Shown here piece after piece: positions 27,366 through 55,151 of a stretch of 64,000 nt of DNA (its first letter is position 1; each line of letters begins with the position of its first letter). Source of the stretch: an uncultured Alphaproteobacteria bacterium (lineage in GTDB: Bacteria; Pseudomonadota; Alphaproteobacteria; HIMB59; GCA-002718135). Made by a program: the position numbers and the translations under genes. The stretch lies in NCBI GenBank assembly GCA_902540265.1, contig CACBLW010000001.1, forward strand, positions 66,687-130,686. The letters run 5' to 3'. Under the pieces are notes generated by a model. The model searched no databases, was not told the origin of the DNA, and worked only from the letters and a program-made list of their open reading frames with translations.

Positions 27366-27368
27366 AAC

Positions 27369-37863: not shown

Positions 37864-38712
37864 TTATAGAATTTGAAAATAAACAACCGAAATACCACTC
37901 ACTATTAAAATAGAAGGTATTATTCGAGATTTTGCATTCTTCTCAAATAAAAAAAGCATTCCAATAATTGCAGCAAACACAATGCTTATTTCTCTAATAC
38001 TAGAGACATAAGCTATTTCTATAAATTGCATACTCCAAACAACAATTGCGTAACTACTTGTTGCAAAGACACCAGCAGCAATCCCCGATATAAAAGTGTA
38101 CGTTTCTTTTTTTCGTAAACCATCTTTTGAGATCAAACCAATAATTAGTAAAGGTATTCCATTAAGTGTGAAGAGCCAGTAAATATAGGAAAAACCATTT
38201 TCAGAAAGCCTAACCCCAACCCCGTCAACTAAAGTGTAAGCAGTAATTAGAATAGCCGTTGATATCGCGAGAGCAAAACCTCTAAAGTTAAAAGATAAAT
38301 TTTTAGCATAAGAAATTAAAAATAATCCAATACAAACAATTAATATTCCAACAAAACCAGCAACACTAATATCAGAACTTAAAAATAAAATACTAATGAT
38401 TGCTACAAACAAACATGAACTTCCTCTAGAAATTGGATATATGTAAGAGAGATCACCGTACCTATAAGAATAAATTACATTTAATCTATAAATGACATGA
38501 ATGATAACGGTTGCAATTAAAAAATACCAAACCTCTAAAGTTGGAAATGGAACAGTAAATGTTAAAGGTAAAAAAATAGTAACTTCTAAGACAGATGTTA
38601 TACCCATTAAAGATAATGGGTTCTTACTTGATTTTATTATAGCACTCCAAACTGCATGACATAGAGCAGAAACAAGAATTAAGATAAAAATAAAATTTAC
38701 TGACAATGTCAT
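37864..38712 (-). CDS. DMT/EamA-like membrane transporter
   Basis: 282 aa and polytopic. It lies 14 nt downstream of the ABC permease gene on the same strand. Confidence 0.7.
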   Translation of the reverse strand: MTLSVNFIFILILVSALCHAVWSAIIKSSKNPLSLMGITSVLEVTIFLPLTFTVPFPTLEVWYFLIATVIIHVIYRLNVIYSYRYGDLSYIYPISRGSSCLFVAIISILFLSSDISVAGFVGILIVCIGLFLISYAKNLSFNFRGFALAISTAILITAYTLVDGVGVRLSENGFSYIYWLFTLNGIPLLIIGLISKDGLRKKETYTFISGIAAGVFATSSYAIVVWSMQFIEIAYVSSIREISIVFAAIIGMLFLFEKNAKSRIIPSILIVSGISVVYFQIL

Positions 38713-38726: not shown

Positions 38727-39620
38727 TTACTTCATGCCTGTCAAAGTAATTCCTTCAATAAATCGTTTTTGCGCGATTATAAAAGCAACAATAAGAGGAA
38801 CTGTTACTGTAACTATCGATGCCATCATTGGACCAAATTCGTCACTATCAATTCCACCTCTAAATTCTCTTATACCAAGCGGCGGAGTAAAGAGATCTCT
38901 ATTTCCTGTTATTACCATACGAGGCCAGAAATAATCATTCCAGTGTGCAACAACTGAGAATATTGCAAAAGCAAGTAATGCTGGTATTGCAGTTGGAAGC
39001 ATTACTTTCCATACGATTGCGTACTCTCCCATGCCGTCCATCCTGGCGGCATCAATTAATTCATCAGGCACAGTCATAAAAAATTGCCGCATTAAAAAAA
39101 TTCCAAACACCGATATGGTCCAGGGAAGTATCAAGGCGGAATAGGTGTCAACTAATCCTGCCTGGGCCAACATAACATACAATGGAAGCGCAATTCCATG
39201 AACTGGAATGAGCAAGCAAAATAAAACCATTGAGAAAACAAATTCTCGCCCGTAAAACCGTAACTTAGCGAGTGCATACGCGCACGGTAAGGCGACTAAA
39301 ACCTGAATAATGAAGATTGATAAAGTAACAATGACACCATTCATTAAGTATCTAGGAATAGGCGCTTTTTCAAAAGCAAACCAATAGTTGTATTGATATG
39401 GCTTCATTGTACATGTTTCTTCTGAATAACCAGTTTTAACACATACAGGAAACGTTTGAGTTTCTTGCGCACCAATAAGACCACCAGAAATTGATTGGAT
39501 TTCTTGCTGAGATTTTAATGACATTGAAACCATCATATAAAAAGGGAGCATCACTACGATAGCACCAATAATTAAGATTGCATGCTTCCAACCTTCCCCA
39601 ATATATTGTTTAGCTTCCAT
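38727..39620 (-). CDS. CUT1-family ABC permease (UgpE/MalG-like)
   Basis: 297 aa with the EAA loop DAARMDGMGEYAIVWKVMLP. Confidence 0.85.
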   Translation of the reverse strand: MEAKQYIGEGWKHAILIIGAIVVMLPFYMMVSMSLKSQQEIQSISGGLIGAQETQTFPVCVKTGYSEETCTMKPYQYNYWFAFEKAPIPRYLMNGVIVTLSIFIIQVLVALPCAYALAKLRFYGREFVFSMVLFCLLIPVHGIALPLYVMLAQAGLVDTYSALILPWTISVFGIFLMRQFFMTVPDELIDAARMDGMGEYAIVWKVMLPTAIPALLAFAIFSVVAHWNDYFWPRMVITGNRDLFTPPLGIREFRGGIDSDEFGPMMASIVTVTVPLIVAFIIAQKRFIEGITLTGMK

Positions 39621-40576
39621 TAATAATGAACCCTCTTCTCAATGACATATCTTTGGAAAAACGTTAACACAAGAATAAATCCAATAAAGACAACAGTGAT
39701 TGCTGCACCGATACTTGTTAAGTTTTGTTGAATAGCTTTTTCAAAGATTGCATACATCATGACATATGTTGTTTTTGATGGACCACCTTTAGTAAGTATT
39801 TCGATAGTATCAAATACCTGAAATGTTCTAATGGTAGTAATAGTCACAACAAACAACGTTGTTGGACCAAGCATTGGCCATGTAACAAGTTTAAATTGCT
39901 CCCATGTAGATTTAGCACCATCCATTTCTGCAGCTTGGTATAACTCTCTTGGTATACTTGTTAAGCCAGCTAAATATAAAACCATGTTAAAACCAAAAGC
40001 CTGCCAAATTCCTATGAAACATACTGTCCAAATCGCAGTATTTTTTTGCTTTAACCAATATGGAAAATCCATGTTGTTTGCACATGCTACAGCATACCAA
40101 CTTTCTTGTGAGTCTACCCATGGCAACCAATGAAAACCAAGAATGAATTCCCTAACTCCCCCACACCCATTTGCTAAAAAACTATTTACAATTCCTAATG
40201 TTGGATGAAGAGTAAATTCCCATGCAATTGCCATTGCAAGAAGAGTTGCCATAACTGGAAGAAAGAAAATTGTTTTATATATATCAGCGCCAAATCTTAG
40301 TGAATTTAAGAGCATAGCAGCACATAATCCAAGTACAACAGAAATTGGAACGACAACAATAACATACGTCGCTGTGGCCCAAATCATTTTGACATATGTT
40401 TTTCGATTGAACATTTTGTCATAATTTTCTAGTCCAACCCACTCGAATGTTTTGTTTCCTAAATTATAGTCAGTAAAAGAAATTCCTCCTGCAAGAAAAA
40501 GAGGAAAGATTAAAATAATTATCATCAGTATGATTGCTGGTGCAATAAACCATATGTGAGCTTTTGAATTATGCAT
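39620..40576 (-). CDS. CUT1-family ABC permease (UgpA/MalF-like)
   Basis: 318 aa with the EAA loop QAAEMDGAKSTWEQFKLVTWPML. Confidence 0.85.
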   Translation of the reverse strand: MHNSKAHIWFIAPAIILMIIILIFPLFLAGGISFTDYNLGNKTFEWVGLENYDKMFNRKTYVKMIWATATYVIVVVPISVVLGLCAAMLLNSLRFGADIYKTIFFLPVMATLLAMAIAWEFTLHPTLGIVNSFLANGCGGVREFILGFHWLPWVDSQESWYAVACANNMDFPYWLKQKNTAIWTVCFIGIWQAFGFNMVLYLAGLTSIPRELYQAAEMDGAKSTWEQFKLVTWPMLGPTTLFVVTITTIRTFQVFDTIEILTKGGPSKTTYVMMYAIFEKAIQQNLTSIGAAITVVFIGFILVLTFFQRYVIEKRVHY

Positions 40577-41702
40577 TAGTAAATTGAACTCTCATTCCTA
40601 CTTGATTAAATAGTAATGCTTTATCTGAAACTCTTTTAATATTCACACTAGAACCGTTTGAAATTTGGTGTGTCAATTGTGGCAAGCCCCTTACAATTAT
40701 TTTATTTGAACCGTCTTCAATATTTACATGAAAGAAAATATCTGAACCTAAATTTTCTCTATATGCAACTGTTCCACTAAATGTATTTTCATTACTTTCA
40801 TTTGTAATTTCTAAATGTTCTGGTCGAATACCAATATGTAAATCTGTATTACTTTCAGAACTTTTTCTTTTTAAATTAACGTTGAGAAAACTTACTGTCC
40901 CACTTGAGTCCGAAGTTCCTTTAAATATATTTATTTTTGGACTTCCAACAAACTGAGCCACACTTAATGAGGAAGGATTGTCATATACTTCTTGAGGTGT
41001 ATCAAGTTGTAATAAATTTCCATCAATCATAACAGCCATTCTAGAAGACATAGTTAATGCTTCTGCTTGATCATGTGTAACGTACACAAAAGTAGTTTTA
41101 AGTGAATTATGAAGTTCAGATAGTTCAGATCGCATGTGAACTCTCAAAGCAGCATCTAAATTTGAAAGAGGTTCATCCATTAAAAAGGCAACAGGCTCTC
41201 TAACCATAGCACGACCAAGAGCAACTCTTTGTCTTTGACCACCTGACAATTGTCCAGGTTTTCTATCTAATAGTTCTGAAATTTTTAGAGTTTCAGAAGT
41301 TTTATTTACTAATTGATTTATAGATTCTGTTTTCTCTTTTTTGCTTGGTGAAAAATTACCAATTAAGGGAAGTCTTTCAAATGCATTATAATCTCTAAGT
41401 CTTAATGGAGTTTCCAAATTTCTTCTTACTGTAAGATGAGGATAAAGAGCATATGACTGGAATACCATTGCCAAATCTCTTTCACTGGCTCTAACTCTAT
41501 TTACATTTTTATTATCTATTAATACATCACCTGAAGTCTGCTGTTCCAATCCTGCAATTATTCTAAGTAATGTAGATTTACCACAACCAGATGGACCAAC
41601 TAACGTTAAGAATTCTCCATCGTTTATATCAACATTCAAATTATTCAGTACTTGGGTAGACCCAAATGACTTTGAAATATTTTTAAGTGATATTGTCCCC
41701 AC
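40569..41702 (-). CDS. ABC ATPase, UgpC/MalK type with C-terminal regulatory domain
   Basis: 377 aa with GPSGCGKST, LSGGQRQRV and FLMDEPLSNLD motifs. It has a GTG start with a GGGGGA RBS. Confidence 0.9.
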   Translation of the reverse strand: MGTISLKNISKSFGSTQVLNNLNVDINDGEFLTLVGPSGCGKSTLLRIIAGLEQQTSGDVLIDNKNVNRVRASERDLAMVFQSYALYPHLTVRRNLETPLRLRDYNAFERLPLIGNFSPSKKEKTESINQLVNKTSETLKISELLDRKPGQLSGGQRQRVALGRAMVREPVAFLMDEPLSNLDAALRVHMRSELSELHNSLKTTFVYVTHDQAEALTMSSRMAVMIDGNLLQLDTPQEVYDNPSSLSVAQFVGSPKINIFKGTSDSSGTVSFLNVNLKRKSSESNTDLHIGIRPEHLEITNESNENTFSGTVAYRENLGSDIFFHVNIEDGSNKIIVRGLPQLTHQISNGSSVNIKRVSDKALLFNQVGMRVQFTNA

Positions 41703-41878
41703 TCATTCCCCCTGTATCTTAACTTTAATCTACAAAATTTTATTAAATTTGAGAATATTTTAAATCTATTTATTTCAGTTTTATTTCAATTTTATTAACA
41801 AATATTCAAATTATGATTGAGTTTAACTAGCAGATAACTATAAATTCGTATTTTTAATAATATATATTAGTTGAATTC

Positions 41879-43120
41879 GTGTCCGATAATTTAGAAATTA
41901 ATAAAAGAGAATATCCAAGCTCTTTCTCAAAAACTGCTATTGTTATATGCCTTGATGGTAGTCAAAAAGAGTATCTCGAAGAAGCATCAAAATCTAATCT
42001 TACACCAAATCTTGATAAATTAATTGCAAGTGGTGAAAACCTACTTGTTCACAGCGCTATTCCAAGTTTTACAAATCCAAATAACATTTCGATTGTAACA
42101 GGCCAACCAAGTTCTGTACACGGTATATGCGGAAACTTCTTTTATACACCTGAGACGGGTGAAGAAGTAATGATGAATGACCCAAAATATATGCGAGCAC
42201 CAACTATTTTTGAAAAATTTTACAATTCTGGTTCTAAAATTGCTCTTGTTACTGCAAAAGACAAGTTGAGAACACTTTTAGGAAACGGATTAAGTTTTGA
42301 TGATGAGAGAGCTATTTGTTTTTCTGCTGAAAAATCTGATCAAGCAACAAAAGATCTCAATGGTATAGATAATGTAAACGATTGGTTGGGGATGCCAGTT
42401 CCAGAAGTATATTCTGAAGGACTTTCTGAATTTGTAATGGCTGCAGGCGTAAAACTTCTTGAGGAGTTTAAACCAAATATTATGTATTTATCGACTACGG
42501 ATTATATTCAACACAAATATGCACCGGGAAATGAAACAGCAAATAAATTTTATGCAATGTTTGATAAATATATTGGACTTTTAAATAAGGAGAATGTTTC
42601 TATAATCATCACAGCAGATCACGGAATGAAACCAAAATCAAAAGAAGATGGTTCACCTAATGCAATATTTTTACAAGATTATTTAGATAAAAAATTTGAA
42701 CCAAACATGGCTAAAGTCATCCTACCAATTACAGATCCATATGTCGTTCATCATGGTTCACTTGGTTCTTTTGCAACAATTTATTTAGAAGACAAGAGCA
42801 GGGTAGATTCAGTTGTAAATGCTATTAAAGAAATAAAAGATATAGAAGTTGTTTTAACAAAAGATGAAGGATGCTCTACTTATAATTTACCTCCTGATAG
42901 AATGGGGGATATTATATGTATGTCTTCAGAATTTATGACTATTGGTTCATCGGAAGATAAACACAATCTTTCTGGATTAAATGAACCTTTACGTTCTCAT
43001 GGAGGACTCCATGAAAGAGAAGTTCCATTCATATCAAATTTAAAATTACAAAACTTAGATACTAGAAAACAATTATATAACTATGATGCATTTTATTATG
43101 CAATAAATGGAGCCCTATGA
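41879..43120 (+). CDS. phnA: Phosphonoacetate hydrolase
   Basis: 413 aa. The N-terminal region ([53 protein letters not shown]) closely matches my recollection of the characterised Pseudomonas fluorescens 23F PhnA. Confidence 0.9.
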
Positions 43121-44559
43121 TGCACAAAAAAATGATTAATGAAGCAATGCGTATTGCTGGAGAAAAAGTTACTTCAGATAAAACAATAAATGTTGAGTAC
43201 CCTTTTACAGGTGAAGTAATCGGAACTGTTCCTGCCGGTACTGTAGAGCATGCAAGAAAGGCTTTAGATATTGCTGCAAATTACCAACCTAAACTTACAA
43301 GATACGAGAGACAAAAAATTCTTCAAACTGCTGCAGAAGTACTTGTTAAAAGAAAAGAAGAAATTTCTGATATTATTACTTTAGAACTTGGTATTTCAAA
43401 ACAAGATTCTTTATACGAAGTAGGAAGAGCTTTTGATGTCTTTTCTTTAACGGCTCAACTTTGTATTCTTGATGATGGAGAAATATTTTCTTGTGATTTA
43501 ACTCCACATGGAAAAGCGAGAAAAATATTTACCATAAGAGAGCCCTTAACGGCAATTTCAGCAATCACTCCATTTAATCACCCTTTGAATATGGTAGCGC
43601 ATAAAATTGCTCCTTCAATTGCAACTAATAATTGTACAGTATGTAAGCAGACAGAATTAACACCTTTAACAGCAATGGTACTCGCTGATGTTTTATATGA
43701 AGCAGGTCTGCCACCAGAAATGTTTTCAGTTGTAACTGGATGGCCTCAAGACATTGGATCAGAAATGATCAAAAATCCAAATATTGATCTCATTACTTTT
43801 ACAGGTAGTGTAGGTGTAGGAAAATTAATTGCTGAACAAGCTGGATACAAAAGAACAGTTCTTGAGCTAGGTGGTAATGATCCATTAATTGTTTTAAATG
43901 ACTTAGATGCTGATGATCTTAAAAAAGCTGTTGAGCTAGCTGTTACGGGAGCAACGAAAAATTCTGGTCAACGTTGTACAGCTGTTAAAAGAATACTGGT
44001 TCAAGAATCTATTGCAGATCAATTTGTTGAAATGGCTCTTGAGCGTGCTAAGAAAATTAAATTTGGTGATCCTATGAATATGGAAACAGACTTAGGTACA
44101 GTTGTTAATGCTCAAGCTGCAGAACTTTTTGATAAAAGAGTTTCTATGGCTGAAGAAGACGGTGCAAAAATTTTATATCACCCTGGAAGAAAGGGTGCTT
44201 TGTTACCTCCAATAGTTGTAGATCATGTTGATCCTAAAAGTGAATTAGTTTTAGAAGAAACATTTGGTCCAGTTATCCCAATCATTCGTGTGCCTAATGA
44301 CGATGAAGCTGTAATGAAAATATCTAATTCAACCGCATTCGGATTATCATCTGGTGTATGTACAAATAACTTCATGCGAGCAAAAAAATATATTCAAGGT
44401 TTAAATGTTGGCACTGTAAATATTTGGGAGGTTCCAGGTTATAGAATTGAAATGTCTCCTTTTGGAGGAATTAAAGATTCAGGTCTTGGTTACAAAGAGG
44501 GTGTTATTGAAGCAATGAAAAGTTTTACTAATGTAAAAACCTTTTCGCTACCTTGGTAA
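43117..44559 (+). CDS. phnY: Aldehyde dehydrogenase, phosphonoacetaldehyde dehydrogenase-like
   Basis: 480 aa ALDH (ELGGNDP, catalytic GQRCTA, EETFGPV). It overlaps the phnA stop by 4 nt. The substrate is inferred from context. Confidence 0.8.
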
Positions 44560-44695
44560 ATAAACCAGTTTTTCTCTAATTTTTTTATTTCTGTGGAAAA
44601 ATAAGCTTATTTTTTAGTAATATTTTCGTAATAAAATTGTAACCTTTTGAGGCTACGTGTTAGATTAATTATTATATTTGAATCGGAGGGATTAA

Positions 44696-45949
44696 ATGAA
44701 AAAATTAATTACAGGATTGGCTGCCGTATTAGCTTTTGGTTTTTATGGTTCTGTTAATTCAGCTAAGTCTATTGAAATAGAAGTAGCTTATCCTTATTCA
44801 GGATTATTCGATGTAACGTTTCAAGCTATTATGCCAGAGTTTGAAAAAGCACATCCAGATATTCAAGTTAAATTTAGAGCAACTTATGAAAACTATGAGG
44901 ATGCAACTGCAACAATCTTCAGAGAGTCTACTTCAGGTAATTTACCAGATGTAACAATGCAAGGTCTTAACAGACAAGCACCTCTAGTTGACAAAGGTAT
45001 TGCTAAGTCTTTAGAGCCATTTATTGCAAAAGAAGCTGCTTTTGAAAAAGATGGTTACCATTCTGCTATGTTAAGTCTTTCAACATTCGGTGGTGAAGTT
45101 TATGGATTACCATTTTCTGTATCAACGCCAGTTGGATATTATAATATGGATTTATTAGCTGAAGCAGGTGTAAATAGTATTCCAACTAACTGGGACGAAG
45201 TTATTGCAGCATGTAATAAATTGGAAGCAGCAGGTAAAGGAACTCTATACTTTGGTTGGAACATCACAGGTAACTGGTTCCACCAAGCATTAATGCACAC
45301 TCAGAATGTTCCAATGGTTAAAGATGGAGCTGTAAATATGGGTGGTGATGCAGGACTTGCAACGTTAGAGCAAATGAAAGCAATCATGAGCGGATGTAAT
45401 ATGCCAAACTATTCAATTGCTGATGGTCAAGCTGCGTTTAACGCAGGTACTATTGGTATGATGTTCTGGTCTACTTCAAGCTTGGGTTCAGTTAATGCTG
45501 CAAAGGCAGACTTTGTTTTAAAAACTGCACCATTCCCTGGAATGGCTGGAGTTAACAATGGAACACCAGCAAGATTACCAGCAGGTGGAAACGCTGCAAT
45601 GTTAGTGTCTACATCTGATGATCCAGCAAGAGTTGATGCTGCATGGACTTTCTTAAAGTTCATTACATCAGGTATCGGTGCTGCATTAGTTGCTGAAACA
45701 ACTGGATATGTTCCACCAAACAAAGCAGCGAATGAATTATTAGGAGATTTCTATAGTAAAAACCCTAATAAACTTACTGCTGTTGAACAACTTCCACTTC
45801 TTGCAGATTGGTTTGCATATCCTGGAGAAAATGGATTAGCTGTTACACAGGTAATCTATGATTACACAGAAGAAATTGCTACAGGCGACGCTGATGATAT
45901 GGGTGATCTCCAAGAAGAAATGATGGAAGAAATAAACGATCTTATGTAA
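44696..45949 (+). CDS. Periplasmic substrate-binding protein, family 1 (UgpB/CUT1-like)
   Basis: 417 aa with a signal peptide, a GGAGGG RBS and its own strong terminator. It is the likely partner of the divergently encoded permeases and ATPase. Confidence 0.85.
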   Translation: MKKLITGLAAVLAFGFYGSVNSAKSIEIEVAYPYSGLFDVTFQAIMPEFEKAHPDIQVKFRATYENYEDATATIFRESTSGNLPDVTMQGLNRQAPLVDKGIAKSLEPFIAKEAAFEKDGYHSAMLSLSTFGGEVYGLPFSVSTPVGYYNMDLLAEAGVNSIPTNWDEVIAACNKLEAAGKGTLYFGWNITGNWFHQALMHTQNVPMVKDGAVNMGGDAGLATLEQMKAIMSGCNMPNYSIADGQAAFNAGTIGMMFWSTSSLGSVNAAKADFVLKTAPFPGMAGVNNGTPARLPAGGNAAMLVSTSDDPARVDAAWTFLKFITSGIGAALVAETTGYVPPNKAANELLGDFYSKNPNKLTAVEQLPLLADWFAYPGENGLAVTQVIYDYTEEIATGDADDMGDLQEEMMEEINDLM

Positions 45950-45980
45950 TTTGAGATTATTTATTATTAACTTTTTATTA

Positions 45981-46012
45981 CAGCGGCTTTATAAAAGCCG
46001 CTGTTTTATTTT
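45981..46012 (+). terminator. Rho-independent terminator after the binding-protein gene
   Basis: CAGCGGCTTT (45981-45990) pairs with AAAGCCGCTG (45994-46003) around a 3-nt loop, followed by TTTTATTTT. Confidence 0.75.
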
Positions 46013-46036: not shown

Positions 46037-47116
46037 ATGCCTCTTAAAACAACTACAATAGGTGCTTATCCAAAACCGAAACAAACACCTATTCAAGATT
46101 GGTTTTTAGGGACAAAATCAGAAGAAGAGAGAAAAGCGTCAAAAGGATTATTATCAAATTGGTCACCTGGCGCATATGAAAAAGCATTAGAGTCTGCAGG
46201 TGCAGATGCTGAAAAATTATTTTTAGCAGCAATTAAAGAAGTTATAACTGATCAAGTAAATGCGGGTATTGATGTTCCAACAGATGGAGAAGTCAGACGT
46301 GAGAGTTACGTATTATATCAATGTCGATTTTTAAATGGTGTAAGTTTTAAGGAAGTTACACATAAGTCAGTAAGACAAGGCGCGTTCGAAGCTGACCTTC
46401 CAACTATTGTTGCACCAATTTCAAGTAAAGAAATACGTATGTATTTAGACTGGAAGAGTGCACAACAATTTACAAAAAACCCAGTTAAAATTACGCTACC
46501 TGGACCAATGACAATTACAGATTCAATTGCTAACAATTACTATGATGACATGAAAAAACTTGGTTTTGATTTAGCATTAGCTCTCAATAAAGAAATTAAG
46601 GCACTTGTGGATGCAGGTTGTCAGTATATTCAAATTGATGAACCAGTATTTGCTAGAAAACCCGATGAAGCTCATTCATATGGTATGGAAAATTTAGAAA
46701 GAATGATGCATGGTATTCCTAAAGAAGTGCAACGCGTTTGCCATATTTGTTGTGGTTATCCTAACTCATTAGACTCAGAAGGGTATAAAAAGGCTGATCT
46801 AGATGCTTATGATAGAATTGCATCACTGGTAGATGATTCAACTATTGATGAAGTATCTTTAGAAGATTCACATAGGCATAATGATTTAAATCTTTTAGAA
46901 AAATTTACTAAAACAAAAGTAATTTTTGGATTTATTGATATTGCAAAAAGTAGAATGGAGTCTGTTGAAGAGGTAAGAGTTCGTATCAAAGATTCACTTG
47001 AACATATTGATGAACACCGCTTAATAGCTGCACCAGATTGTGGTTTAGGTTTCTTTACACGAGAACAAGCAATTGAGAAAATGACAATTCTAACTAAAGC
47101 GGCAAAATCAATTTAA
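46037..47116 (+). CDS. Cobalamin-independent methionine-synthase-II-like Zn alkyltransferase (MetE C-terminal-domain family)
   Basis: 359 aa. TIGAYPKP, DGEVRRESY and IQIDEP motifs are present. Putative Zn ligands are CHICCGY (HxC) and APDCGLGF. Confidence 0.75.
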   Translation: MPLKTTTIGAYPKPKQTPIQDWFLGTKSEEERKASKGLLSNWSPGAYEKALESAGADAEKLFLAAIKEVITDQVNAGIDVPTDGEVRRESYVLYQCRFLNGVSFKEVTHKSVRQGAFEADLPTIVAPISSKEIRMYLDWKSAQQFTKNPVKITLPGPMTITDSIANNYYDDMKKLGFDLALALNKEIKALVDAGCQYIQIDEPVFARKPDEAHSYGMENLERMMHGIPKEVQRVCHICCGYPNSLDSEGYKKADLDAYDRIASLVDDSTIDEVSLEDSHRHNDLNLLEKFTKTKVIFGFIDIAKSRMESVEEVRVRIKDSLEHIDEHRLIAAPDCGLGFFTREQAIEKMTILTKAAKSI

Positions 47117-47120
47117 GGTA

Positions 47121-48233
47121 ATGTGGAATTATTTTAATCCTGTTGAAATTATCTTTGGAGAAAATAGATTTACAGAAGTACATGATGCTCTTAAAAATAA
47201 GAACTACATCATAATCACTCATCCAGAGGAAATTTTTAAAAAATATAGCGATGAATTAAAATCTTCTTCAAATCCACCTTTATCCATTATGACCGATGTT
47301 CAGCCTAATCCAGATTATAAGGATATTTTAGAACTACAAAATAAATTTTCTTCAATCAATGAATCGGTAGATTATATTTTAGCTATAGGTGGTGGCTCTG
47401 TTACAGACACAGCTAAAGCAATTGCTGCATTTAAAGATAAACAAGAATATCTAACAGATTTCGTTCGTAATAAGAAAAATCCAAGAGTCGAAAATCCAAT
47501 CAAGATTATTGCAATACCTACAACTTCAGGAACATCAAGTGAGCTTACGTGTTGGGCCACAATTTGGGATAAAGAAAAAAACAATAAATTATCTTTGGCG
47601 CATAAATCTCTTTATGCAGAAAAAGCAATTATCGATCCATCTATTATGGTTGATAAACCTTTAGGCTTGACCATTTCAACAGGTTTAGATGCTCTCTCTC
47701 ATTCAATGGAAAGTATTTGGAATATTAATGCAAACCCAATTTCTGCTTCTCATGCAATACAAGCATCAAAATTAGTATTAGAAAATTTACCACTTCTCGC
47801 TAAAGATTTAAGAAGCGTTGAATTACGTTCAAACATTGCACTGGCATGCGTTCATGCTGGCTTAGCGTTTTCCAATACAAAAACTGCTATTGCGCACAAT
47901 CTATCATACCCTGTGACGCTCAATTACGGCATTCAACATGGTATTGCTTGTTCATTTACTTTACCCATGATTACTAAAAGTATGGTTGGAATTGATAGTG
48001 TCGCTGAAGAAAGACTAAAGTTAATTTTTAACGATAACCTTGAAAATGCCGCAAATCATCTGAGTGAATTTATGCGTTCTTTAGAGGTTCCTCTTAACTT
48101 AAATGAAATAAAAGTTCCTGTTCAAGAATGGAATAATATAGTAGATGATGCGTTTTTAGGGGAACGAGGTAAAAACTTTATTGGCAATAAAGAAGCCTTC
48201 ATCTCTTCTGCTAAATCAATGGGACTTTATTAG
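47121..48233 (+). CDS. Iron-containing (group III) alcohol dehydrogenase; candidate phosphonoacetaldehyde reductase / 2-hydroxyethylphosphonate dehydrogenase
   Basis: 370 aa. Motifs FNPVEIIFGEN, AIGGGSVTDTAK, GLDALSHSME and AIAHNLSYP are present. The substrate is inferred from the phosphonate context only. Confidence 0.8.
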   Translation: MWNYFNPVEIIFGENRFTEVHDALKNKNYIIITHPEEIFKKYSDELKSSSNPPLSIMTDVQPNPDYKDILELQNKFSSINESVDYILAIGGGSVTDTAKAIAAFKDKQEYLTDFVRNKKNPRVENPIKIIAIPTTSGTSSELTCWATIWDKEKNNKLSLAHKSLYAEKAIIDPSIMVDKPLGLTISTGLDALSHSMESIWNINANPISASHAIQASKLVLENLPLLAKDLRSVELRSNIALACVHAGLAFSNTKTAIAHNLSYPVTLNYGIQHGIACSFTLPMITKSMVGIDSVAEERLKLIFNDNLENAANHLSEFMRSLEVPLNLNEIKVPVQEWNNIVDDAFLGERGKNFIGNKEAFISSAKSMGLY

Positions 48234-48235: not shown

Positions 48236-49342
48236 ATGAAAAAAAATTTCAGGTTTTATGATAACAGACAAAAATACTTATTATTTGTCACAACAACAAA
48301 TGAAAAAAATCAAATTGCTGATGCGATACGCCCTCACATAAATAAAATTAAACCTCAAAAACCTGGCATAAAAATATTTGATGCTGGTATGGGTGATGGT
48401 TCCTTACTTATGAATGTTATGCGTCAGTGCCACGAGGCTAAGCCTAACGTACCTTTATTAGTTTGCACAAAAGAAATAAGCATAGAAGATGTAAGATTAG
48501 GTTTAGAAAAATTACCCGATAGGTTTGTTGAACATAAGAATACGGTTTTTGTCATTTCAAATCTACACTACGCTGAAGCTGCAAACCTAAAATCAAAAAA
48601 TGAAGTTAAACAGAAAAAAATTAATTGGAATATTATTAAATTAAAAGGAGATACCTCTCTTGAATTTGCCCAACAATTAAGAAAACAAAATGAATTTTTA
48701 GAAAAAAAATGGAATATAGAAATTAATAAAAAGTCAGGTAACCATACTTATAAAGAGCCTTCAGTCATGGTTATCTACCGCGAAGATCAAGAATTTAATG
48801 TAAATGAATTAATACCTACCAAAAAAAAATCAGATAATAAATTTGATCTTATTATTGCTTCACAGCCTTATCGTTCAAGAATCACAGCAGAAAAGAAATC
48901 AAAATATGTCATCGAACCAATGATTAGAGCGTTAAAATCAAAAGGGAAATTATTAACTATTCATGCTTCAGGAAAAGATCCTGCTAATGAAATAATTCGT
49001 AAAATTTGGCCAAAAGAGGACCCATTTCCTTCTCTTGGAAATAGTATCATTTCTTATCTTAAGAAAAATTTAGATAAAGATTTATTAAGAAGATTATCTT
49101 TTGGAGAAAAAAGAATTATTAAATGTAAATTGAGAGCTCTACCAACAGAAATCAGCGGAGGTATAGCGACATCATTAGTTTTTTCTGCTTGGAATGCCTC
49201 CATATATGTCAATCAAATGGATGACGACAAAGTAATGAAAGTAGAAAAAACTAAAAACTATGAAAAAATTGTTCAAAACATTGTTGCTAAAAATAAAGGT
49301 CTTTATTTTAACAATGAAATATTTGTAATCGAAAAAAAATAA
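48236..49342 (+). CDS. Hypothetical protein with Rossmann methyltransferase-like motif
   Basis: 368 aa. IFDAGMGDGS resembles SAM motif I, and DLIIASQPY and GKLLTIH resemble later motifs, with a long insertion between them. I recognise no characterised homolog. Confidence 0.45.
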   Translation: MKKNFRFYDNRQKYLLFVTTTNEKNQIADAIRPHINKIKPQKPGIKIFDAGMGDGSLLMNVMRQCHEAKPNVPLLVCTKEISIEDVRLGLEKLPDRFVEHKNTVFVISNLHYAEAANLKSKNEVKQKKINWNIIKLKGDTSLEFAQQLRKQNEFLEKKWNIEINKKSGNHTYKEPSVMVIYREDQEFNVNELIPTKKKSDNKFDLIIASQPYRSRITAEKKSKYVIEPMIRALKSKGKLLTIHASGKDPANEIIRKIWPKEDPFPSLGNSIISYLKKNLDKDLLRRLSFGEKRIIKCKLRALPTEISGGIATSLVFSAWNASIYVNQMDDDKVMKVEKTKNYEKIVQNIVAKNKGLYFNNEIFVIEKK

Positions 49343-49346: not shown

Positions 49347-50135
49347 TTATTTAAACCAATTAACTTCTGTTTTTAAAAAATCCTCTGTATGAATAATTAA
49401 GGCGTCAGATCGAATTATTGCAACATTATAATTTGTATCTGTATTAGCCGTTCCTAAACGATATTCATTTGAAAAGTTAGGTATTAGAGGAGACCAAGTA
49501 CTTCTTGGGGAGGAAAAAGTAATACCACAATAAGAGCCAGAACTTGTAATGTGTTGATGACCAAAAAAAATATGTTTTATTATATTATTATTTTTAGTTA
49601 AAATTTGTTGAAACTCTTTTTTTTGTTGTAATCCTATTCCATCACTTTCCTCTTTTACTAATGCCAGTGGATTATGATGCATAAAGATGTACGTATCCGT
49701 ATTAGTCTTACTTAAAATATTATTTAACCATTCTTGCCTCTCTTCACAATAATGTCCTTGGTGAGTGTTAATCAGATTAGTATCTATAAAAATTAAACGT
49801 TTATTATCTATATCCTTAAAGTATTGAATAAATCCATTTGGATCGGTTTCAATATCAGGAAAGTTTATTTTAAATTCATCTCTGTTATCATGATTACCTA
49901 TAATTAGTTGAGGATTTAAATTCTTCGGCAGACCTGCTTCATCAATTATTTTTAAAAATAACTGATAAGAATCTTTATCACCTAAGTCTGTAATATCACC
50001 TGTGATGGCAAATAAATCTGCATCACCATGATTATTTTTTATATGAGTTAATGCTTTTTTAAATTTACTGACAGGATCTATGCCATGAATCTTATCAATA
50101 TAAATATGAGGGTCTGAAAGGTGAATAATTTTCAT
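49347..50135 (-). CDS. Calcineurin-like metallophosphoesterase / phosphodiesterase
   Basis: 262 aa. Motifs HLSDPH, GDITDLGD, GNHDNR, MHHNP and GHQH are present. Confidence 0.8.
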   Translation of the reverse strand: MKIIHLSDPHIYIDKIHGIDPVSKFKKALTHIKNNHGDADLFAITGDITDLGDKDSYQLFLKIIDEAGLPKNLNPQLIIGNHDNRDEFKINFPDIETDPNGFIQYFKDIDNKRLIFIDTNLINTHQGHYCEERQEWLNNILSKTNTDTYIFMHHNPLALVKEESDGIGLQQKKEFQQILTKNNNIIKHIFFGHQHITSSGSYCGITFSSPRSTWSPLIPNFSNEYRLGTANTDTNYNVAIIRSDALIIHTEDFLKTEVNWFK

Positions 50136-50155: not shown

Positions 50156-50788
50156 TTAGATCGCAGTTTTAAAATAAATATACTTATTAAATTCCTCTTT
50201 TAAGTCGATGCTAACTCTTGCATGTACTTTACCTTGTTTTCCTTGAAACGATTGTTTTTCTGTAACTGGAAACACCCCTTCATGCCAAATATTTGGATGA
50301 ATATACAAACCTTTTGATCCGTCACAATAAAATGCTTTAAAATGTTCTGGTTCAATGTCGTCTGTAGGTAAGGCTAAAGGACAAATAAATGGTTTATTTT
50401 CTTCAGGAAAGAAAAGCTGACCTCCATCAGGATGATAATTTGCATGCCATAAAAAAATTTTTGTTGGATCTGAATATTTATCTTTTTGTAATTCTTGATC
50501 AGGATTATTGGCATAACCCAGTATATATTTTCCATCTACCTCATAATCGCTCTTATGTTGAACAGCATTATTTTGTCCATAAAGAACATCACCTTGCCAC
50601 CAGGTATCAAAAGAACCTTCGGTAGTTCCACCTTCATTACCAGTTCCCTCTTCTATGTCGCGCCATCCTTGTTTTGGCCAAGTAACAATTTCAATATCAC
50701 TATTTTCAAAACTATCGATTAAATATCCGTATCCCTTAAGATTTTCATTTGTTGCTTTAACTAATGGTATTTCAATTTCTTTTGTCAT
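50156..50788 (-). CDS. Ureidoglycolate-lyase (AllA)-like cupin-fold protein
   Basis: 210 aa. HPDGGQLFFP..KPFICPLAL..FKAFYCDGSKGLYIHPNIWHEGVF parallels the AllA-family core as I remember it. The function here is unknown. Confidence 0.55.
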   Translation of the reverse strand: MTKEIEIPLVKATNENLKGYGYLIDSFENSDIEIVTWPKQGWRDIEEGTGNEGGTTEGSFDTWWQGDVLYGQNNAVQHKSDYEVDGKYILGYANNPDQELQKDKYSDPTKIFLWHANYHPDGGQLFFPEENKPFICPLALPTDDIEPEHFKAFYCDGSKGLYIHPNIWHEGVFPVTEKQSFQGKQGKVHARVSIDLKEEFNKYIYFKTAI

Positions 50789-50795: not shown

Positions 50796-51893
50796 TTAGT
50801 TTAATGTTAATCCCAATTCAGTAACGACTTCTTTTACAGCTTTTATCGTATCCATCATGTCTTGTTCATCTAAATTACCAATACACCCAATTCTAAAAGT
50901 TTCTGCCACTGTTAGTTTTCCTGGATAAATTAAAAAATCTTTTTCACTAAGAGCATTATAAAATTTCTCAAAGTTAAATTTAGGATCATTAGGTTGTTTA
51001 AACGTAATAATAATTGGTGCTTGTAAATTATCAGGAAGTAGTTGCTCAAATCCCAACTCTTTCATTCCATTACAAATAATTTCACAATTTTTTTTATATC
51101 TTTTACCTCTTCCTTTTACACCGCCTTGTTCTTTATGTTCTTCAATAGCTTGGTTGAATGCAGCTAATACGTGTGTTGGAGGTGTAAATCGCCATTGTTT
51201 ATTTTTTTCCATTGCTTGCCATTGATCATACAAGTCTAGACTTAGTGAGTGACTATTGCCTTTTGCATTTTGAATAACTTCATTTTTAACAAGAATGAAA
51301 CCAACACCTGGCACACCTTCTAAGCATTTGTTTGATGAAGCGGCTACAGCATCAAAAGTAATTGTTTTAGAACTTAAGGGTAATGCACCAAAGGCACTCA
51401 TTGCATCGATGAATAACGATAAATTTTTCCCCTCAACCAATTTTGCAATGTCTTCAATAGGATTTAAAATACCCGATGTCGTTTCACAATATACAGCAAA
51501 GACGTGTGTTAAGTTGTTGCTATCAATTAAGTCTTCAATTTTATTGATGTCATGTACTTCATTTTCAGCAACTTCATATTCAATAAAATCTCTCCCTAAA
51601 TATGTGCACATTTTTTTCATTCTTTGTCCGTAAGCACCATTGATCAGAATCAGAATTTTAGAATCTTTTTGAGTAAGAGAGCTTACCATCGACTCTACGG
51701 CAAAAGTTCCACTTCCCTGCATTGGAACACATTGATATTTATCTTCACCGTCTATTAATTTAACAAGGGAATCTCTAATTGATGCATTGAGATCAATAAA
51801 TTTTGTATCTCTCGAACCCCAATCATGAAGCATAGCCTCTTTTGTTGACATCGATGTCGTGAGAGGACCAGGGGTTAATAATTTTTTATCCAT
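50796..51893 (-). CDS. phnW: 2-aminoethylphosphonate--pyruvate transaminase
   Basis: 365 aa. The N-terminus LLTPGPLTTSMSTKEAMLHDWGSRD is typical of PhnW. A class V aminotransferase core with an SNKCLEG Lys region is present. Confidence 0.9.
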   Translation of the reverse strand: MDKKLLTPGPLTTSMSTKEAMLHDWGSRDTKFIDLNASIRDSLVKLIDGEDKYQCVPMQGSGTFAVESMVSSLTQKDSKILILINGAYGQRMKKMCTYLGRDFIEYEVAENEVHDINKIEDLIDSNNLTHVFAVYCETTSGILNPIEDIAKLVEGKNLSLFIDAMSAFGALPLSSKTITFDAVAASSNKCLEGVPGVGFILVKNEVIQNAKGNSHSLSLDLYDQWQAMEKNKQWRFTPPTHVLAAFNQAIEEHKEQGGVKGRGKRYKKNCEIICNGMKELGFEQLLPDNLQAPIIITFKQPNDPKFNFEKFYNALSEKDFLIYPGKLTVAETFRIGCIGNLDEQDMMDTIKAVKEVVTELGLTLN

Positions 51894-51981: not shown

Positions 51982-52557
51982 ATGAAAATGGAAGAAAATA
52001 TTGTAGACTATCTCTTACATCTTTTGAAAACAAAAGGTGCTGATATTCAATATGGTAATGAGGATGTGACACAGCTTGAGCACGCACTCCAATGCGCTGA
52101 ACTTGCTGAAAAAAATAAATTACCAGGACCAACAATTGCTGCAGCATTACTGCATGATGTTGGCCACCTTATCTATGAGGACGGCGATCCCATTCATGAA
52201 GGGAAAGATGGTCATCATGAAAATTTAGGTGCTGATTTTTTAAAAAAATATTTTGGTGAGGATGTTATTTTACCAATTAGAGCACATGTTGACTCAAAAA
52301 GATATTTATCAAGTGTTGAAGAAGGTTATTATGATAGTCTATCAGAAGCATCGAAACTTTCGTTAAAAGTTCAAGGTGGTCCTTTCACAAAAGAAGAAGC
52401 AGATGCGTTTATAAGCAAACCTTTTATGGATGAAGCAGTAGAGCTTAGAAGATTTGATGATTTAGCAAAAATTCTAGATAAAAAAACTCCCGATGTTGAA
52501 CATTTCCGTCCCTATTTAGAAGAAGCAAGAGAGTCTTTTTTAGCTAAACAAGCGTAA
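51982..52557 (+). CDS. phnZ: HD-domain phosphonate oxygenase-like protein (PhnZ family)
   Basis: 191 aa. QLEHALQCA, AALLHDVGH, HHENLGADFL and HVDSKRYL align with the diiron ligand blocks of PhnZ as I remember them. Confidence 0.75.
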   Translation: MKMEENIVDYLLHLLKTKGADIQYGNEDVTQLEHALQCAELAEKNKLPGPTIAAALLHDVGHLIYEDGDPIHEGKDGHHENLGADFLKKYFGEDVILPIRAHVDSKRYLSSVEEGYYDSLSEASKLSLKVQGGPFTKEEADAFISKPFMDEAVELRRFDDLAKILDKKTPDVEHFRPYLEEARESFLAKQA

Positions 52558-53082
52558 ATGCAATTAAGCAACTATGATTTTATTGACTCTAAGTCATTTG
52601 CAGGAAAAATTATATTAACTTCTTTCCCAGGTCTTAACTCTAATGGTTTATTTGAAGAAACAATTTTAGCAAACGAATTAGAAATATTTAAAAATAATAA
52701 TTGTAGTTCTATTACTTCTTTTGTTGAAGATAGCGAATTTGAAAAATTGTGTGATAAAACTTTGTTTGTCAAAAATATTTATGAACATAAATTACATTGG
52801 TACCATTTACCCATTTATGACATGGGAGCACCAGATAAAGATTTTAAATATAAATGGGAAACAACAAAAGTTTTATTAAAGAACGAATTGATAGATGGTA
52901 AAAATATAGTCTTACATTGTCGTGGAGGAAAAGGAAGAGCTGGCACTATAGCTGCTATTTTACTTGTTGAATTTAATTATGAAAAACAAGAAGCTATTGA
53001 TTTAGTGCGATCAAGAAGAAAAGGAGCTATTGAGTCAAAAATCCAAGAAGATTTTATTTTTTCTTATCGAGCAGTTAATTAA
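52558..53082 (+). CDS. Dual-specificity / PTP-like CX5R phosphatase
   Basis: 174 aa with the active-site loop HCRGGKGRAGT. Its start abuts the phnZ-like stop (TAAATG). Confidence 0.7.
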   Translation: MQLSNYDFIDSKSFAGKIILTSFPGLNSNGLFEETILANELEIFKNNNCSSITSFVEDSEFEKLCDKTLFVKNIYEHKLHWYHLPIYDMGAPDKDFKYKWETTKVLLKNELIDGKNIVLHCRGGKGRAGTIAAILLVEFNYEKQEAIDLVRSRRKGAIESKIQEDFIFSYRAVN

Positions 53083-54131
53083 AAAGAGACCGTTAAATTA
53101 AAAATATTTTCTAGAATAAATAAAACAATTAAAGAAATTAAAGCTGCAATTATAGGTAGCGTCATCCAACCCAAAGAAATTCTACCTGCAATTGACCATT
53201 GAACCTCTTTTCCTCCTTTTAAAAGACCAATTCCAATTACGCCGCCGACAACAGCTTGGGAACTTGATACTGGTACCAAAGGTATAGAGGGAAGATTTAT
53301 AGATTGTAAAAAAGCACTTATACCCTGGGATGCAAATAAAAATAAAACAATAGAATGCGATATAACAACAATAAATGCTGCCACTGGTGTCATTTTTAAG
53401 AGATCATTACCCACGGTAAACATAACTCTTTTCGAGTAAGTAAAAACACCAACAGCTATTGCTAAACCACCCAGCAGAAATAATTGTTCTTTTGAGGAAA
53501 AGACAAATAAATTTCCAATAGTAACATCAGTAAACGGTGATATAGGTACGAAGACACCCATTACATTGGCAATATTGTTTGCACCTAAACTATAAGCACC
53601 AAAAGCACCCGCTAAAAGTAAAGCTGTTCTTGTATAGGCATCAAGTCTGAGAATATGTAACTTTCTATTGAGTATAACTCTTTTTGTAAAAGTAAATAAA
53701 CCCATTGCAATAACTCCTGCAATGATAGGGCAGAGTATCCATGTTCCTAAAATAGTAATTAAAACTTGAAGATTAGTTGAAGATCCCGTGTATAAATTCC
53801 AACCAACAATTGCTCCAACAATCGCTTGCGTTGTTGAAACAGGCAAGCCAACTTTGGTCATTAAATAAACGGATATGCCTGCAGCCACACATGCTGCAAA
53901 GGCACCAGGTAATGCATTAATAGCACCTAACTTACCTAAAGTTTCTGTTGTTCCTGCTCCACTAATAATTGCACCTAGAATAACAAAGACACTACAAATT
54001 ATTGCTGCACTTGTGAAACTAACCATTCGTGTTCCAACTGCAGTTCCAAAAACATTTGCTGCATCATTGGCACCAAGTGACCAACCTAAAAAAAAACCAC
54101 CAAATAAAAAAATTAGAATTGTAATTTCCAT
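53079..54131 (-). CDS. pit: Inorganic phosphate transporter, PiT (PHO4) family
   Basis: 350 aa. The motif GANDAANVFGTAVG occurs at the N-terminus and GANNIANVMG in the repeat. The protein is polytopic. Confidence 0.9.
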   Translation of the reverse strand: MEITILIFLFGGFFLGWSLGANDAANVFGTAVGTRMVSFTSAAIICSVFVILGAIISGAGTTETLGKLGAINALPGAFAACVAAGISVYLMTKVGLPVSTTQAIVGAIVGWNLYTGSSTNLQVLITILGTWILCPIIAGVIAMGLFTFTKRVILNRKLHILRLDAYTRTALLLAGAFGAYSLGANNIANVMGVFVPISPFTDVTIGNLFVFSSKEQLFLLGGLAIAVGVFTYSKRVMFTVGNDLLKMTPVAAFIVVISHSIVLFLFASQGISAFLQSINLPSIPLVPVSSSQAVVGGVIGIGLLKGGKEVQWSIAGRISLGWMTLPIIAALISLIVLFILENIFNLTVSF

Positions 54132-54137
54132 TGAAAA

Positions 54138-54800: not shown

Positions 54801-54923
54801 GGCGTGCTTATAGAACTTTTCAAAAAAAAAGAAAGAAATGTTAAATTTTTGTTACAATTTGATTAATATCTTTATCTTTAAGTAAAGTGTAATATTCGCA
54901 ATCTATAGAATTTAGGAGAAGAT

Positions 54924-55151
54924 ATGACAGATTTATCAATTAATAGAATTAAGTGGTTTAGCACCGCGTTAATTTTATCAGGAATATTATTAACCAATTT
55001 AAATGCGTATCCAATTAACATAATTATTCACGGTACAGGTGCTGTTGGTTGGTCAATTGTTGGTTATATGACAAAAGATAGAGCTCTGCTCACAAACTTT
55101 GGTTTACAACTCCCACTATTTATTTTTGGATATATTTATTTGCTAACATGA
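54924..55151 (+). CDS. Small 3-TM membrane protein (75 aa)
   Basis: A GGAGAAG RBS is present and there are three hydrophobic segments. Its stop overlaps the arsC-like start (ATGA). Confidence 0.45.
   Translation: MTDLSINRIKWFSTALILSGILLTNLNAYPINIIIHGTGAVGWSIVGYMTKDRALLTNFGLQLPLFIFGYIYLLT

Follow-up and report, generated by a model that had tools for sequence, protein, structure and literature searches.

The closest described relatives of the importer considered here are the UgpBAEC systems of Escherichia coli and Phaeobacter MED193, which follow the logic of importing the ligand first and splitting it by a cytoplasmic esterase, UgpQ, afterwards. In the structure of the MED193 binding protein UgpB (PDB 9lff), the phosphate is contacted by Tyr64, Ser143, Ser266 and Tyr342, the glycerol hydroxyls by Glu88, Arg393 and Gly303, and the ligand is clamped between Trp188 and Trp191 (PMC12718374). 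The Tyr/Ser tetrad is reported as 'strictly conserved' in binders of glycerol 3-phosphate (G3P), glycerophosphocholine (GPC) and the dinucleotide U3G and as absent from glucose binders (PMC12718374). Known phosphonate importers rely on other binding proteins, either PF12974 (PhnD) or the FbpA-like PF13343 type (PhnS, AepX, AepS), and AepX-type systems accompany phnW, phnA and phnY in marine Alphaproteobacteria (PMC8316502). The transporters recorded in surveys of marine phn clusters are limited to PhnCDE, PhnSTUV and PalCDE (PMC9381506). Recently, clusters combining PhpC (or PbfG) with PhnY-PhnA or PhnX were assigned to the catabolism of 2-hydroxyethylphosphonate (HEP), and their transporters are drawn there only as unnamed grey genes (Piazza et al., September 2026, PMC13576164). 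Here we describe a Ugp-like importer built around phnA-phnY in a window of 64,000 nucleotides (GC content ~31%) from an uncultured alphaproteobacterium (contig CACBLW010000001.1, positions 66,687 to 130,686). The window comes from SAR11, and its binding protein is shared, at 100% identity, with many SAR11 single-cell genomes.

Positions 38727-45949 of the window encode a complete binding-protein-dependent importer of the CUT1 (TC 3.A.1.1), UgpBAEC type, organized in two divergent units that bracket phnA-phnY (Table 1). Domain and family assignments were made with Pfam and NCBIfam models and their curated cut-offs. The importer comprises a family-1 binding protein, two MalFG-type permeases with EAA-type loops (AAEMDGA..WP in the UgpA-like and DAARMDG..MLP in the UgpE-like protein) and a MalK-type ATPase carrying Walker A, LSGGQ, the H-loop and a C-terminal TOBE/OB regulatory domain. 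UgpC, UgpA and UgpE are the best matches, MalK coming second for the ATPase, which scores 305 bits with PhnT2 (cut-off 457.7). Like PhnCDE, PhnSTUV, AepXVW/AepSTU and AepP, this importer is genetically linked to phosphonate catabolic genes; it differs from them by its MalFGK/Ugp-type permeases and ATPase C-terminal domain, and by a PF13416/PF01547 binding protein with no match to PF13343 or PF12974. The original prediction of a CUT1/Ugp-type importer unlike PhnSTUV and PhnCDE is thus borne out. It is however not a canonical UgpBAEC, since all four components remain below the corresponding equivalog cut-offs, from UgpB (65 against 411 bits) to UgpC (388 against 432).

The transporter operon and phnA diverge from a common AT-rich intergenic region with direct repeats of 11-bp spacing, which consist of three units, TTTATTTCAgt, TTTATTTCAat and TTTATTaacaa. 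In a Pho-box-type search this was the sole exact match in the window, with no convincing recurrence elsewhere in it. The core of the repeat is partly conserved among SAR11 subclades, where the aligned positions show TGTTA-type repeats with the same spacing, and it could represent a candidate site for a PhoB-like response regulator. On the other side of phnY, the binding-protein gene possesses, as had been noticed earlier, its own ribosome-binding site (GGAGGG, upstream of the start) and its own terminator-like hairpin. Because phnY and this gene are 136 bp apart, and the gap includes a promoter-like site (44647-44675), co-transcription of the binding-protein gene with phnA-phnY can only be called possible. 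Among the open reading frames (ORFs) annotated between ~24.7 and 62.3 kb of the window, we found no regulator gene. The absence of a regulator, already noted in the original prediction, is therefore valid for this locus and is specific to SAR11, the orthologous cassettes elsewhere having a LysR gene.

The binding protein, which carries a Sec signal peptide, is placed in the UgpB clade by its predicted fold and by the aligned phosphate tetrad. A profile of 28 sequences searched against the PDB retrieves 9lff first (9.6e-27), then E. coli UgpB, the Thermus thermophilus U3G binder and Mycobacterium tuberculosis UgpB. The ranking is the same with Foldseek and an AlphaFold2 (AF2) model (pLDDT 82.8), whose top matches are the UgpBs and the U3G binder with TM scores of 0.78-0.80. 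M. tuberculosis UgpB (a GPC binder, 6r1b) and the U3G binder (7c0f series), which share clade and fold with the window protein at 19-22% identity, bind phosphodiesters via the same tetrad, and neither of them is linked to phosphonate genes.

Ligand residues were transferred from 9lff (chain offset +20) through a sequence alignment at ~20-25% identity and not from coordinates. The phosphate tetrad corresponds to Y67, S143, S259 and Y338, all invariant in the window family; because it is retained, the ligand likely carries a phosphoryl or phosphonoryl group. Gly303 (G298) and the first clamp residue (W188) are also kept, while Trp191 falls in an insertion and the nearest tryptophan, W194, is shifted. 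In contrast, the residues holding glycerol in UgpB are replaced, Glu88 by an invariant G90 and Arg393 by an invariant T384, whereas M. tuberculosis UgpB keeps its Asp/Arg glycerol binders. A glycerol-linked head group, as suggested earlier, finds no support in this comparison if it is to be held as in UgpB. We infer that the rest of the ligand is held differently, and the Glu-to-Gly and Arg-to-Thr changes suggest a pocket roomier than that of a G3P binder. At the Glu88 position the family exhibits an invariant signature, Q89-G90-L91-N92-R93, whose N92 and G90 correspond in the alignment to N81 and F79, the residues mutated (N81A, F79A) in U3G-binder structures.

These features bear on the simplest reading of the locus, that of an ordinary CUT1 importer of sugars or polyols unrelated to phosphorus. 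The public annotation of the binding protein ('multiple sugar transport system substrate-binding protein') and its Pfam domains, which are those of sugar binders, speak for it. We nevertheless consider it very improbable: the best relatives all bind phosphoryl ligands through a tetrad that glucose binders do not have (PMC12718374), the family is regularly associated with phosphodiesterase and phosphonate-enzyme genes, and the Pfam and NCBIfam annotation of the cluster reveals no sugar kinase, isomerase or glycosidase.

The neighbouring enzymes point to phosphonates. PhnA, PhnY and PhnW, which compose the hydrolytic pathway of 2-aminoethylphosphonate (AEP) via phosphonoacetate, all score above their curated equivalog cut-offs, phnW being located 5 kb downstream of the importer region. 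Past the terminator, a short MetE-like gene, a PhpC-type gene and a gene for a 368-aa protein are tightly packed, the second starting 4 bp after the first. The PhpC-type protein, a candidate dehydrogenase for the conversion of HEP to phosphonoacetaldehyde, is 46% identical to a borderline-scoring homolog beside PhnD in another metagenomic locus (L099; loci are designated by L numbers), and its position next to phnY-phnA is that seen in the HEP cluster paper (PMC13576164). In the MetE-like protein we recognize HxC, SLED and PDCG motifs at the positions expected for the Zn ligands of the MetE family. The 368-aa protein may possibly adopt a divergent class-I S-adenosylmethionine-dependent methyltransferase fold: its AF2 model (pLDDT 63) gives weak Foldseek matches to methyltransferases (E 4e-3 or worse), no PDB sequence match was obtained, and its listed close homologs are unnamed or hypothetical proteins of Pelagibacter or Alphaproteobacteria. 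Its gene is translationally coupled to the PhpC-type gene. The earlier gene inventory had recognized phnA and phnY correctly and had missed phnW, the PhpC-type dehydrogenase, the MetE-like gene, a PhnZ-like oxygenase and the phosphorus-stress island in which they stand.

A calcineurin-like metallophosphoesterase encoded further downstream presents in its sequence the seven binuclear-metal ligands (D, H, D, N, H, H, H) of GpdQ-type, class-III phosphodiesterases, a group that includes Rv0805 and SpdA. Its best PDB match is GpdQ from Enterobacter aerogenes (2zo9/2dxl/3d03), a distant relative (6e-13) of comparable size (274 aa, against 262 aa for the window protein), and the two align at the D-x-H, GD, GNHD, HH and GHxH motifs. 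Besides phosphodiesters, GpdQ is able to cleave phosphonate monoesters. The UgpQ-like role formerly attributed to the window enzyme receives strong comparative support, GpdQ being its best solved relative and a GpdQ-like gene following the orthologous binding-protein gene in most loci outside SAR11; the fold, however, is that of a metallophosphoesterase and not the glycerophosphodiester phosphodiesterase (GDPD) fold of UgpQ. The window system would thus share with UgpBAEC/UgpQ, besides its four components, the order of import and cytoplasmic de-esterification, and its neighbours, unlike those of UgpBAEC, are phosphonate enzymes.

The reading that we favour, and to which we accord about an even chance, is that this system imports organophosphonates or organophosphates, most likely phosphonate monoesters, and supplies phosphonoacetaldehyde to PhnY and PhnA. 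In the periplasm, a small anionic organophosphonate or organophosphate, most likely HEP or AEP esterified on phosphorus, would be captured by the binding protein and then imported by the permeases and the ATPase. The GpdQ-like enzyme would then remove the ester group, the MetE-like enzyme maybe doing likewise by alkyl transfer. The PhpC-type dehydrogenase would make phosphonoacetaldehyde from HEP, and PhnW would make it from AEP; PhnY would turn this aldehyde into phosphonoacetate, from which PhnA would release acetate and phosphate. Surplus phosphate may exit through the adjacent Pit system.

Table 1. Features of the window around the importer, with their positions, strand and the models or motifs on which the assignments are based.
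Feature	Positions	Strand	Basis and remarks
EamA-type membrane protein	37864-38712	-	PF00892; TIGR03340 142 bits (cut-off 288)
ABC permease, UgpE/MalG-like	38727-39620	-	PF00528; best NCBIfam UgpE 128 bits (cut-off 297)
ABC permease, UgpA/MalF-like	39620-40576	-	PF00528; best match UgpA 103 bits (cut-off 335)
ABC ATPase, UgpC/MalK type	40569-41702	-	ABC_tran, TOBE_2, OB_MalK; best NCBIfam UgpC 387.6 bits (cut-off 432)
AT-rich divergent intergenic region	41703-41878	.	176 bp
Direct repeats, 11-bp spacing	41769-41799		TTTATTTCA; within the ATPase/phnA intergenic region
phnA, phosphonoacetate hydrolase	41879-43120	+	TIGR02335 467.5 bits (cut-off 407.6)
phnY, phosphonoacetaldehyde dehydrogenase	43117-44559	+	TIGR03250 798 bits (cut-off 635.7)
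Periplasmic binding protein, CUT1 family, UgpB clade	44696-45949	+	PF13416/PF01547 (SBP_bac_8/SBP_bac_1)
Intrinsic-terminator-like hairpin	45980-46004	+	11-bp stem with 6 GC pairs, then TTTATTTT (T-run)
Short MetE-like (Meth_synt_2) enzyme	46037-47116	+	PF01717; best PDB 3rpd, 5e-44
PhpC-type iron-family alcohol dehydrogenase, candidate HEP dehydrogenase	47121-48233	+	Fe-ADH, ADH_Fe_C; TIGR03405 364 bits (cut-off 423.7)
368-aa protein	48236-49342	+	Methyltransf_31 weak match 9e-4; motif FDAGMGDG
GpdQ-like binuclear metallophosphodiesterase, candidate cytoplasmic de-esterifying enzyme	49347-50135	-	PF00149; best NCBIfam SpdA 175 bits (cut-off 400)
210-aa protein	50156-50788	-	PF04115 39.9 bits, residues 119-182 only; weak partial ureidoglycolate-lyase-like match
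phnW, 2-aminoethylphosphonate-pyruvate transaminase	50796-51893	-	NF010006 511.5 bits (cut-off 296); TIGR02326 459.6 bits (cut-off 400.8)
PhnZ-like HD-domain phosphonate oxygenase	51982-52557	+	TIGR03276 201.8 bits (just under cut-off 214.6)
Dual-specificity/protein-tyrosine-phosphatase-like domain protein, directly after the PhnZ-like gene	52558-53082	+	PF22784 48.7 bits; DSPc 29.9 bits
Pit-like permease	53079-54131	-	NF053884 (named sulfate permease) 80 bits, under cut-off
DUF47/TIGR00153-family protein	54138-54800	-	TIGR00153 73 bits, under cut-off
OlsF/GlsA-like aminolipid acyltransferase	55779-56621
Metallophosphoesterase and family-4 glycosyltransferase (GT4) pair	56700-58498
ppk1	58725-60824
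ppx	61376-62281

To examine conservation, the window proteins were compared by tblastn with 80 SAR11 loci taken from the species-level GTDB genome collection, in which at least 80 SAR11 entries carry the binding protein (370-477 relatives across the two collections scanned); each gene was counted only in loci with a flank long enough. phnY accompanies the binding-protein gene in 78/78 loci and phnA does so in 75/75, as do the ATPase and permease genes (74/74 each), so that the flanking of phnA-phnY by importer genes, reported earlier for one sequence, recurs in all these SAR11 loci with sufficient flank (74-78 of 74-78 loci). The MetE-like gene, always next to the binding-protein gene, is present in all 77 loci and the PhpC-type gene in all 76; in all 74-78 loci the binding-protein gene stands between phnY and PhpC, in subclades 77-100% identical. 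The 368-aa protein or a 33% homolog occurs in 70/70 loci; the homolog, in subclade B, is encoded upstream of the permeases, on the other side of the transporter (e.g. L071, 1368-2480).

This constancy does not extend to the esterase and phnW, which are found in 54 of 56 and 49 of 53 loci, respectively, of subclade A, to which the window belongs, and in none of the 17 loci of the second subclade, B (within 10 kb), whose binding protein is 87% identical to that of the window. Because both are missing there, the esterase counts as accessory, as does the AEP branch, and the invariant SAR11 core is composed of the transporter, PhnA, PhnY, the MetE-like protein and PhpC, i.e. the HEP route. The phosphonoacetate branch proposed at first is thus right as to phnA and phnY, which are genuine; what is invariant in SAR11 is however the HEP route and not the AEP route. 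In terms of the HEP cluster paper (PMC13576164), subclade B, within 10 kb, resembles the 'HEP-dedicated' clusters, which have no phnW, while the subclade of the window adds phnW and a PhnZ-like gene to the plan. The GpdQ-like esterase, phnW and a PhnZ-like oxygenase accompany the importer in the majority of the SAR11 genomes. Since phnW lies 2.6 kb beyond phpC, the window island is a mixed AEP and HEP one, unlike a HEP-dedicated cluster. In several SAR11 genomes (L002, L003, L006, L007, L012, L021, L032, L036, L044 and L079) the esterase is 62-70% identical to the window copy and its flanking genes are 97-100% identical, which suggests allele replacement or a hypervariable gene inside a conserved island.

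The importer belongs to a subfamily of its own, which many marine bacteria carry. Homologs of the binding protein with 57-69% identity are abundant in marine Rhodobacterales and other Proteobacteria. There the genes form a cassette in the order LysR regulator, ATPase, two permeases (the window permease at 38727-39620 is 65-72% identical to permeases of these cassettes), binding protein and GpdQ-type metallophosphodiesterase; in SAR11 this ATPase-permease-permease-binding-protein cassette is split around phnA-phnY. The cassette is carried by Phaeobacter inhibens plasmids, with unrelated mobile genes around it, by a Delftia IncP plasmid, where it lies between insertion sequence elements, by Tistrella and Agrobacterium plasmids and by several metagenome contigs. 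A second scan seeded with non-SAR11 sequences provided 80 further metagenome loci, of which 64 with at least 1 kb downstream were scored for the gene following the binding-protein gene. This gene encodes a GpdQ-like phosphodiesterase in 44 loci, a protein resembling gamma-aminobutyrate (GABA) transaminase in 12, a zinc-dependent alcohol dehydrogenase (Zn-ADH) in five and a MetE-like protein in one, the remaining two having another gene or none. In at least three of the five loci with a Zn-ADH, genes for an esterase and a CoA-transferase come next, and two of these loci have a metallo-beta-lactamase (MBL) hydrolase as well. Variant cassettes after the same binding protein (L082/L083, 11348-14559; L085, 11341-17506; L095, 9042-16524) are of two types, one with a GABA-transaminase-like gene, a class-III-like Zn-ADH and a hydroxypyruvate-isomerase-like gene, the other with a CoA-transferase, an MBL hydrolase, an aldehyde dehydrogenase (ALDH) resembling succinate-semialdehyde dehydrogenase (SSADH), a Zn-ADH, a Na/Pi cotransporter and a haloacid-dehalogenase-type (HAD) phosphatase. 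Both types resemble a phosphate-ester version of the phosphonate route.

Part of this distribution would suit an importer for free C2 phosphonates (HEP, AEP or both, perhaps also phosphoethanolamine), which would require no de-esterification, with the esterase serving another substrate. The invariant SAR11 core includes transporter, PhpC, PhnY and PhnA, subclade B has neither esterase nor phnW within 10 kb, and in the 12 loci mentioned above an aminotransferase instead of an esterase follows the binding protein. Moreover, the tetrad would bind a free phosphonate equally well, and no other phosphonate binding protein is present among the window ORFs examined. In MED193, a phoX mutant reaches the wild-type yield on phosphoethanolamine, indicating a second route there (PMC10132767). 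On the other hand, the predicted ligand residues of the SAR11 proteins are, except for position 144, identical to those of the proteins followed by a phosphodiesterase, which represent ~70% of the non-SAR11 loci. The Glu-to-Gly and Arg-to-Thr replacements would also make the pocket larger and not smaller, and in L165 an esterase is inserted between the binding protein and PhnY*/PhnZ-like genes. Import of free C2 phosphonates is the main rival reading, if below an even chance.

The transporter family meets phosphonate enzymes in different genomes, and these are of four kinds: PhnA/PhnY, PhpC-type, PbfG-like and PhnY*/PhnZ-like. In L165 the order is ATPase, permease, permease, binding protein, esterase, PhyH-family dioxygenase and PhnZ-like oxygenase; PhnZ-like genes are also found nearby in L149 (221.7 bits, above the cut-off), L162 and L167. 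In L161 a PhpC-type dehydrogenase gene is divergent from the ATPase gene, with PsiE and EamA genes beside it; from the near-identical gene layout and GC content we take L161 and L165 to be of the same lineage. Both are compact clusters of a non-SAR11 lineage with 53% GC (L165, 3043-6700; L161, 1926-9215). L097 and L169 contain a Zn-ADH matching the 'phosphonate catabolism associated' family with 300 bits (cut-off 328) and, as is the case for PbfG, threonine dehydrogenase as second best. PbfG-like enzymes occur only in these two loci: the Zn-ADHs of L082 and L085 were considered and discarded, being class-III-like (TIGR03366, 122-150 bits) and accompanied by an ALDH that is SSADH-like and not PhnY. 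Such an association with four enzyme kinds would be hard to explain unless the ligand were often a phosphonate or a derivative.

Outside SAR11 the MetE-like gene also follows the family. It is adjacent to the binding-protein gene in L097 (10001-11080) and L133 (1656-2732) and near it in L144 (11367-12443) and L132, and in L099 (10001-11080) it lies 5.5 kb from the PhpC-type gene beside PhnCDE. Plasmid homologs of the MetE-like protein are all at most 33% identical 'methionine synthases' in uninformative contexts and were not retained.

The esterase cassettes open another way of reading the system, as a general phosphodiester scavenger. It would be equivalent to Ugp/UgpQ but with a GpdQ-type esterase, handle glycerophosphoethanolamine, dialkyl phosphates and the like, and stand beside the phosphonate pathway, without feeding it, only because SAR11 collects its phosphorus-stress genes in one island. 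Most non-SAR11 cassettes consist indeed of transporter and esterase alone, further phosphorus-stress genes are found in the window (Pit, an OlsF-like gene, a metallophosphoesterase-glycosyltransferase pair, ppk1 and ppx), and GpdQ has been used as the phosphodiesterase supporting growth on dimethyl phosphate (PMC9371700). We find this unlikely, for three reasons: a single divergent promoter region is common to the transporter operon and phnA, the position of the binding-protein gene between phnY and PhpC is constant in SAR11, and the transporter family adjoins the four kinds of phosphonate enzymes in unrelated lineages with GC contents of 42-59%.

Expression data exist for a putative counterpart in Phaeobacter MED193 (MED193_11288-11308), whose gene order is like that of the cassette. 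Under phosphate starvation, MED193_11288 ('predicted phosphodiesterase'), MED193_11293 (binding protein of a 'sugar ABC transporter') and MED193_11308 (ATPase) are up 3.5-5.5 log2-fold (PMC10132767, Table 1). In a phoB mutant, the esterase and the ATPase are undetected, while induction of the binding protein persists (3.27), its abundance being very low (PMC10132767). MED193_11293 does not figure among the listed members of the protein cluster of this family. We considered the Phaeobacter ethanolamine receptor, EtoX, as an ortholog and rejected it because it is a TRAP protein.

To return to the import of phosphonate monoesters, several observations weigh against it. In subclade B, free HEP would account more easily than an ester for the lack of a nearby esterase and phnW. 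Full-length identity between the SAR11 esterase and the esterases of the non-SAR11 cassettes is only 33-36%; unlike in the cassettes, the SAR11 gene is detached from the transporter operon, on the opposite strand and at a distance of 3.4 kb from that of the binding protein. For most esterase cassettes, which lack phosphonate genes in their vicinity, ordinary phosphodiesters are an equally good explanation, and the 12 loci with a GABA-transaminase-like gene have no carbon-phosphorus enzyme nearby either. The proposed shape of the pocket is drawn from an alignment of low identity and not from coordinates. Finally, as the window is a phosphorus-stress island, co-location could partly reflect shared regulation and not a shared pathway.

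The island, with its mixed set of AEP and HEP catabolic genes, is a phosphorus-stress region extending beyond phnW. No PhnY*/PhyH hydroxylase partner of the PhnZ-like oxygenase is recognizable in the window. The Pit-like permease and the DUF47-family protein, encoded by a gene pair (53079-54800), are presumably a phosphate transporter with its accessory protein, and we take the metallophosphoesterase-GT4 pair to resemble the PlcP-Agt lipid-remodelling operon. An ArsC-like reductase is also encoded among the phosphorus-stress genes (53079-62281). On the other side, next to the permeases, the EamA-type protein shows a distant likeness to a 'phosphonate utilisation associated' DUF6 family, and an EamA gene is found in SAR11 group-A loci. 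Further away, the GC content falls to ~25% over 4 kb (14001-18000), compared with ~31-35% elsewhere.

No PhnD-, PhnS- or AepX-type binding protein (PF12974/TIGR03431, PF13343) was found among the window ORFs examined. A possible second phosphonate importer at 24700-25752, matching PF13343 and weakly PhnS models, turned out to be a ferric FbpA (1q35, 3e-86). It belongs to a ferric-iron ABC system (24700-28415) with an FbpA-type binding protein, a fused double permease and a convergent ATPase, whose best NCBIfam matches, of low score, are misleading '2-aminoethylphosphonate' transporter models.

In the literature that we searched, no paper linking a Ugp/CUT1 system to phnA/phnY and no open paper on the gene context of gpdQ were found. 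Neither the MetE-like gene nor a Ugp-like importer is among the cluster genes named in the accessible part of the HEP cluster paper (PMC13576164), and the accessible text of a binding-protein study of Ca. P. ubique does not mention phosphonates (PMC11485210). Transporter and esterase are each of a known type, and their recruitment into a phosphonate island with a MetE-like partner appears undescribed. A bolder extension, which we advance tentatively and hold to be doubtful, is that this family constitutes a fourth, unrecognized class of marine phosphonate receptors, dedicated to phosphonate mono-esters (low-molecular-weight pieces of the HEP, methylphosphonate and AEP esters in marine dissolved organic matter), which in SAR11 the GpdQ-like enzyme, by hydrolysis, or the co-conserved MetE-like enzyme, by transferring the ester alkyl group to a thiol, would de-esterify. 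Were this true, the alkyl transfer from ester to thiol by the MetE-like enzyme would add a new reaction to phosphonate catabolism.

No bacterial group is more abundant in the surface ocean than SAR11, and phosphonates make up a large share of marine dissolved organic phosphorus. Their uptake is tracked by the markers phnD, phnS and aepX, none of which is among the island genes examined, and the Ugp-like system described here is labelled a sugar transporter in public annotation. If its ligand is HEP, AEP or one of their esters, surveys of uptake potential miss a major phosphonate route, and HEP catabolism, described only in 2026, acquires both a transporter and a host in the environment. One recombinant protein would then suffice to test which phosphonates SAR11 consumes. 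The MetE-like gene beside the binding-protein gene may mark an undescribed enzymatic step.

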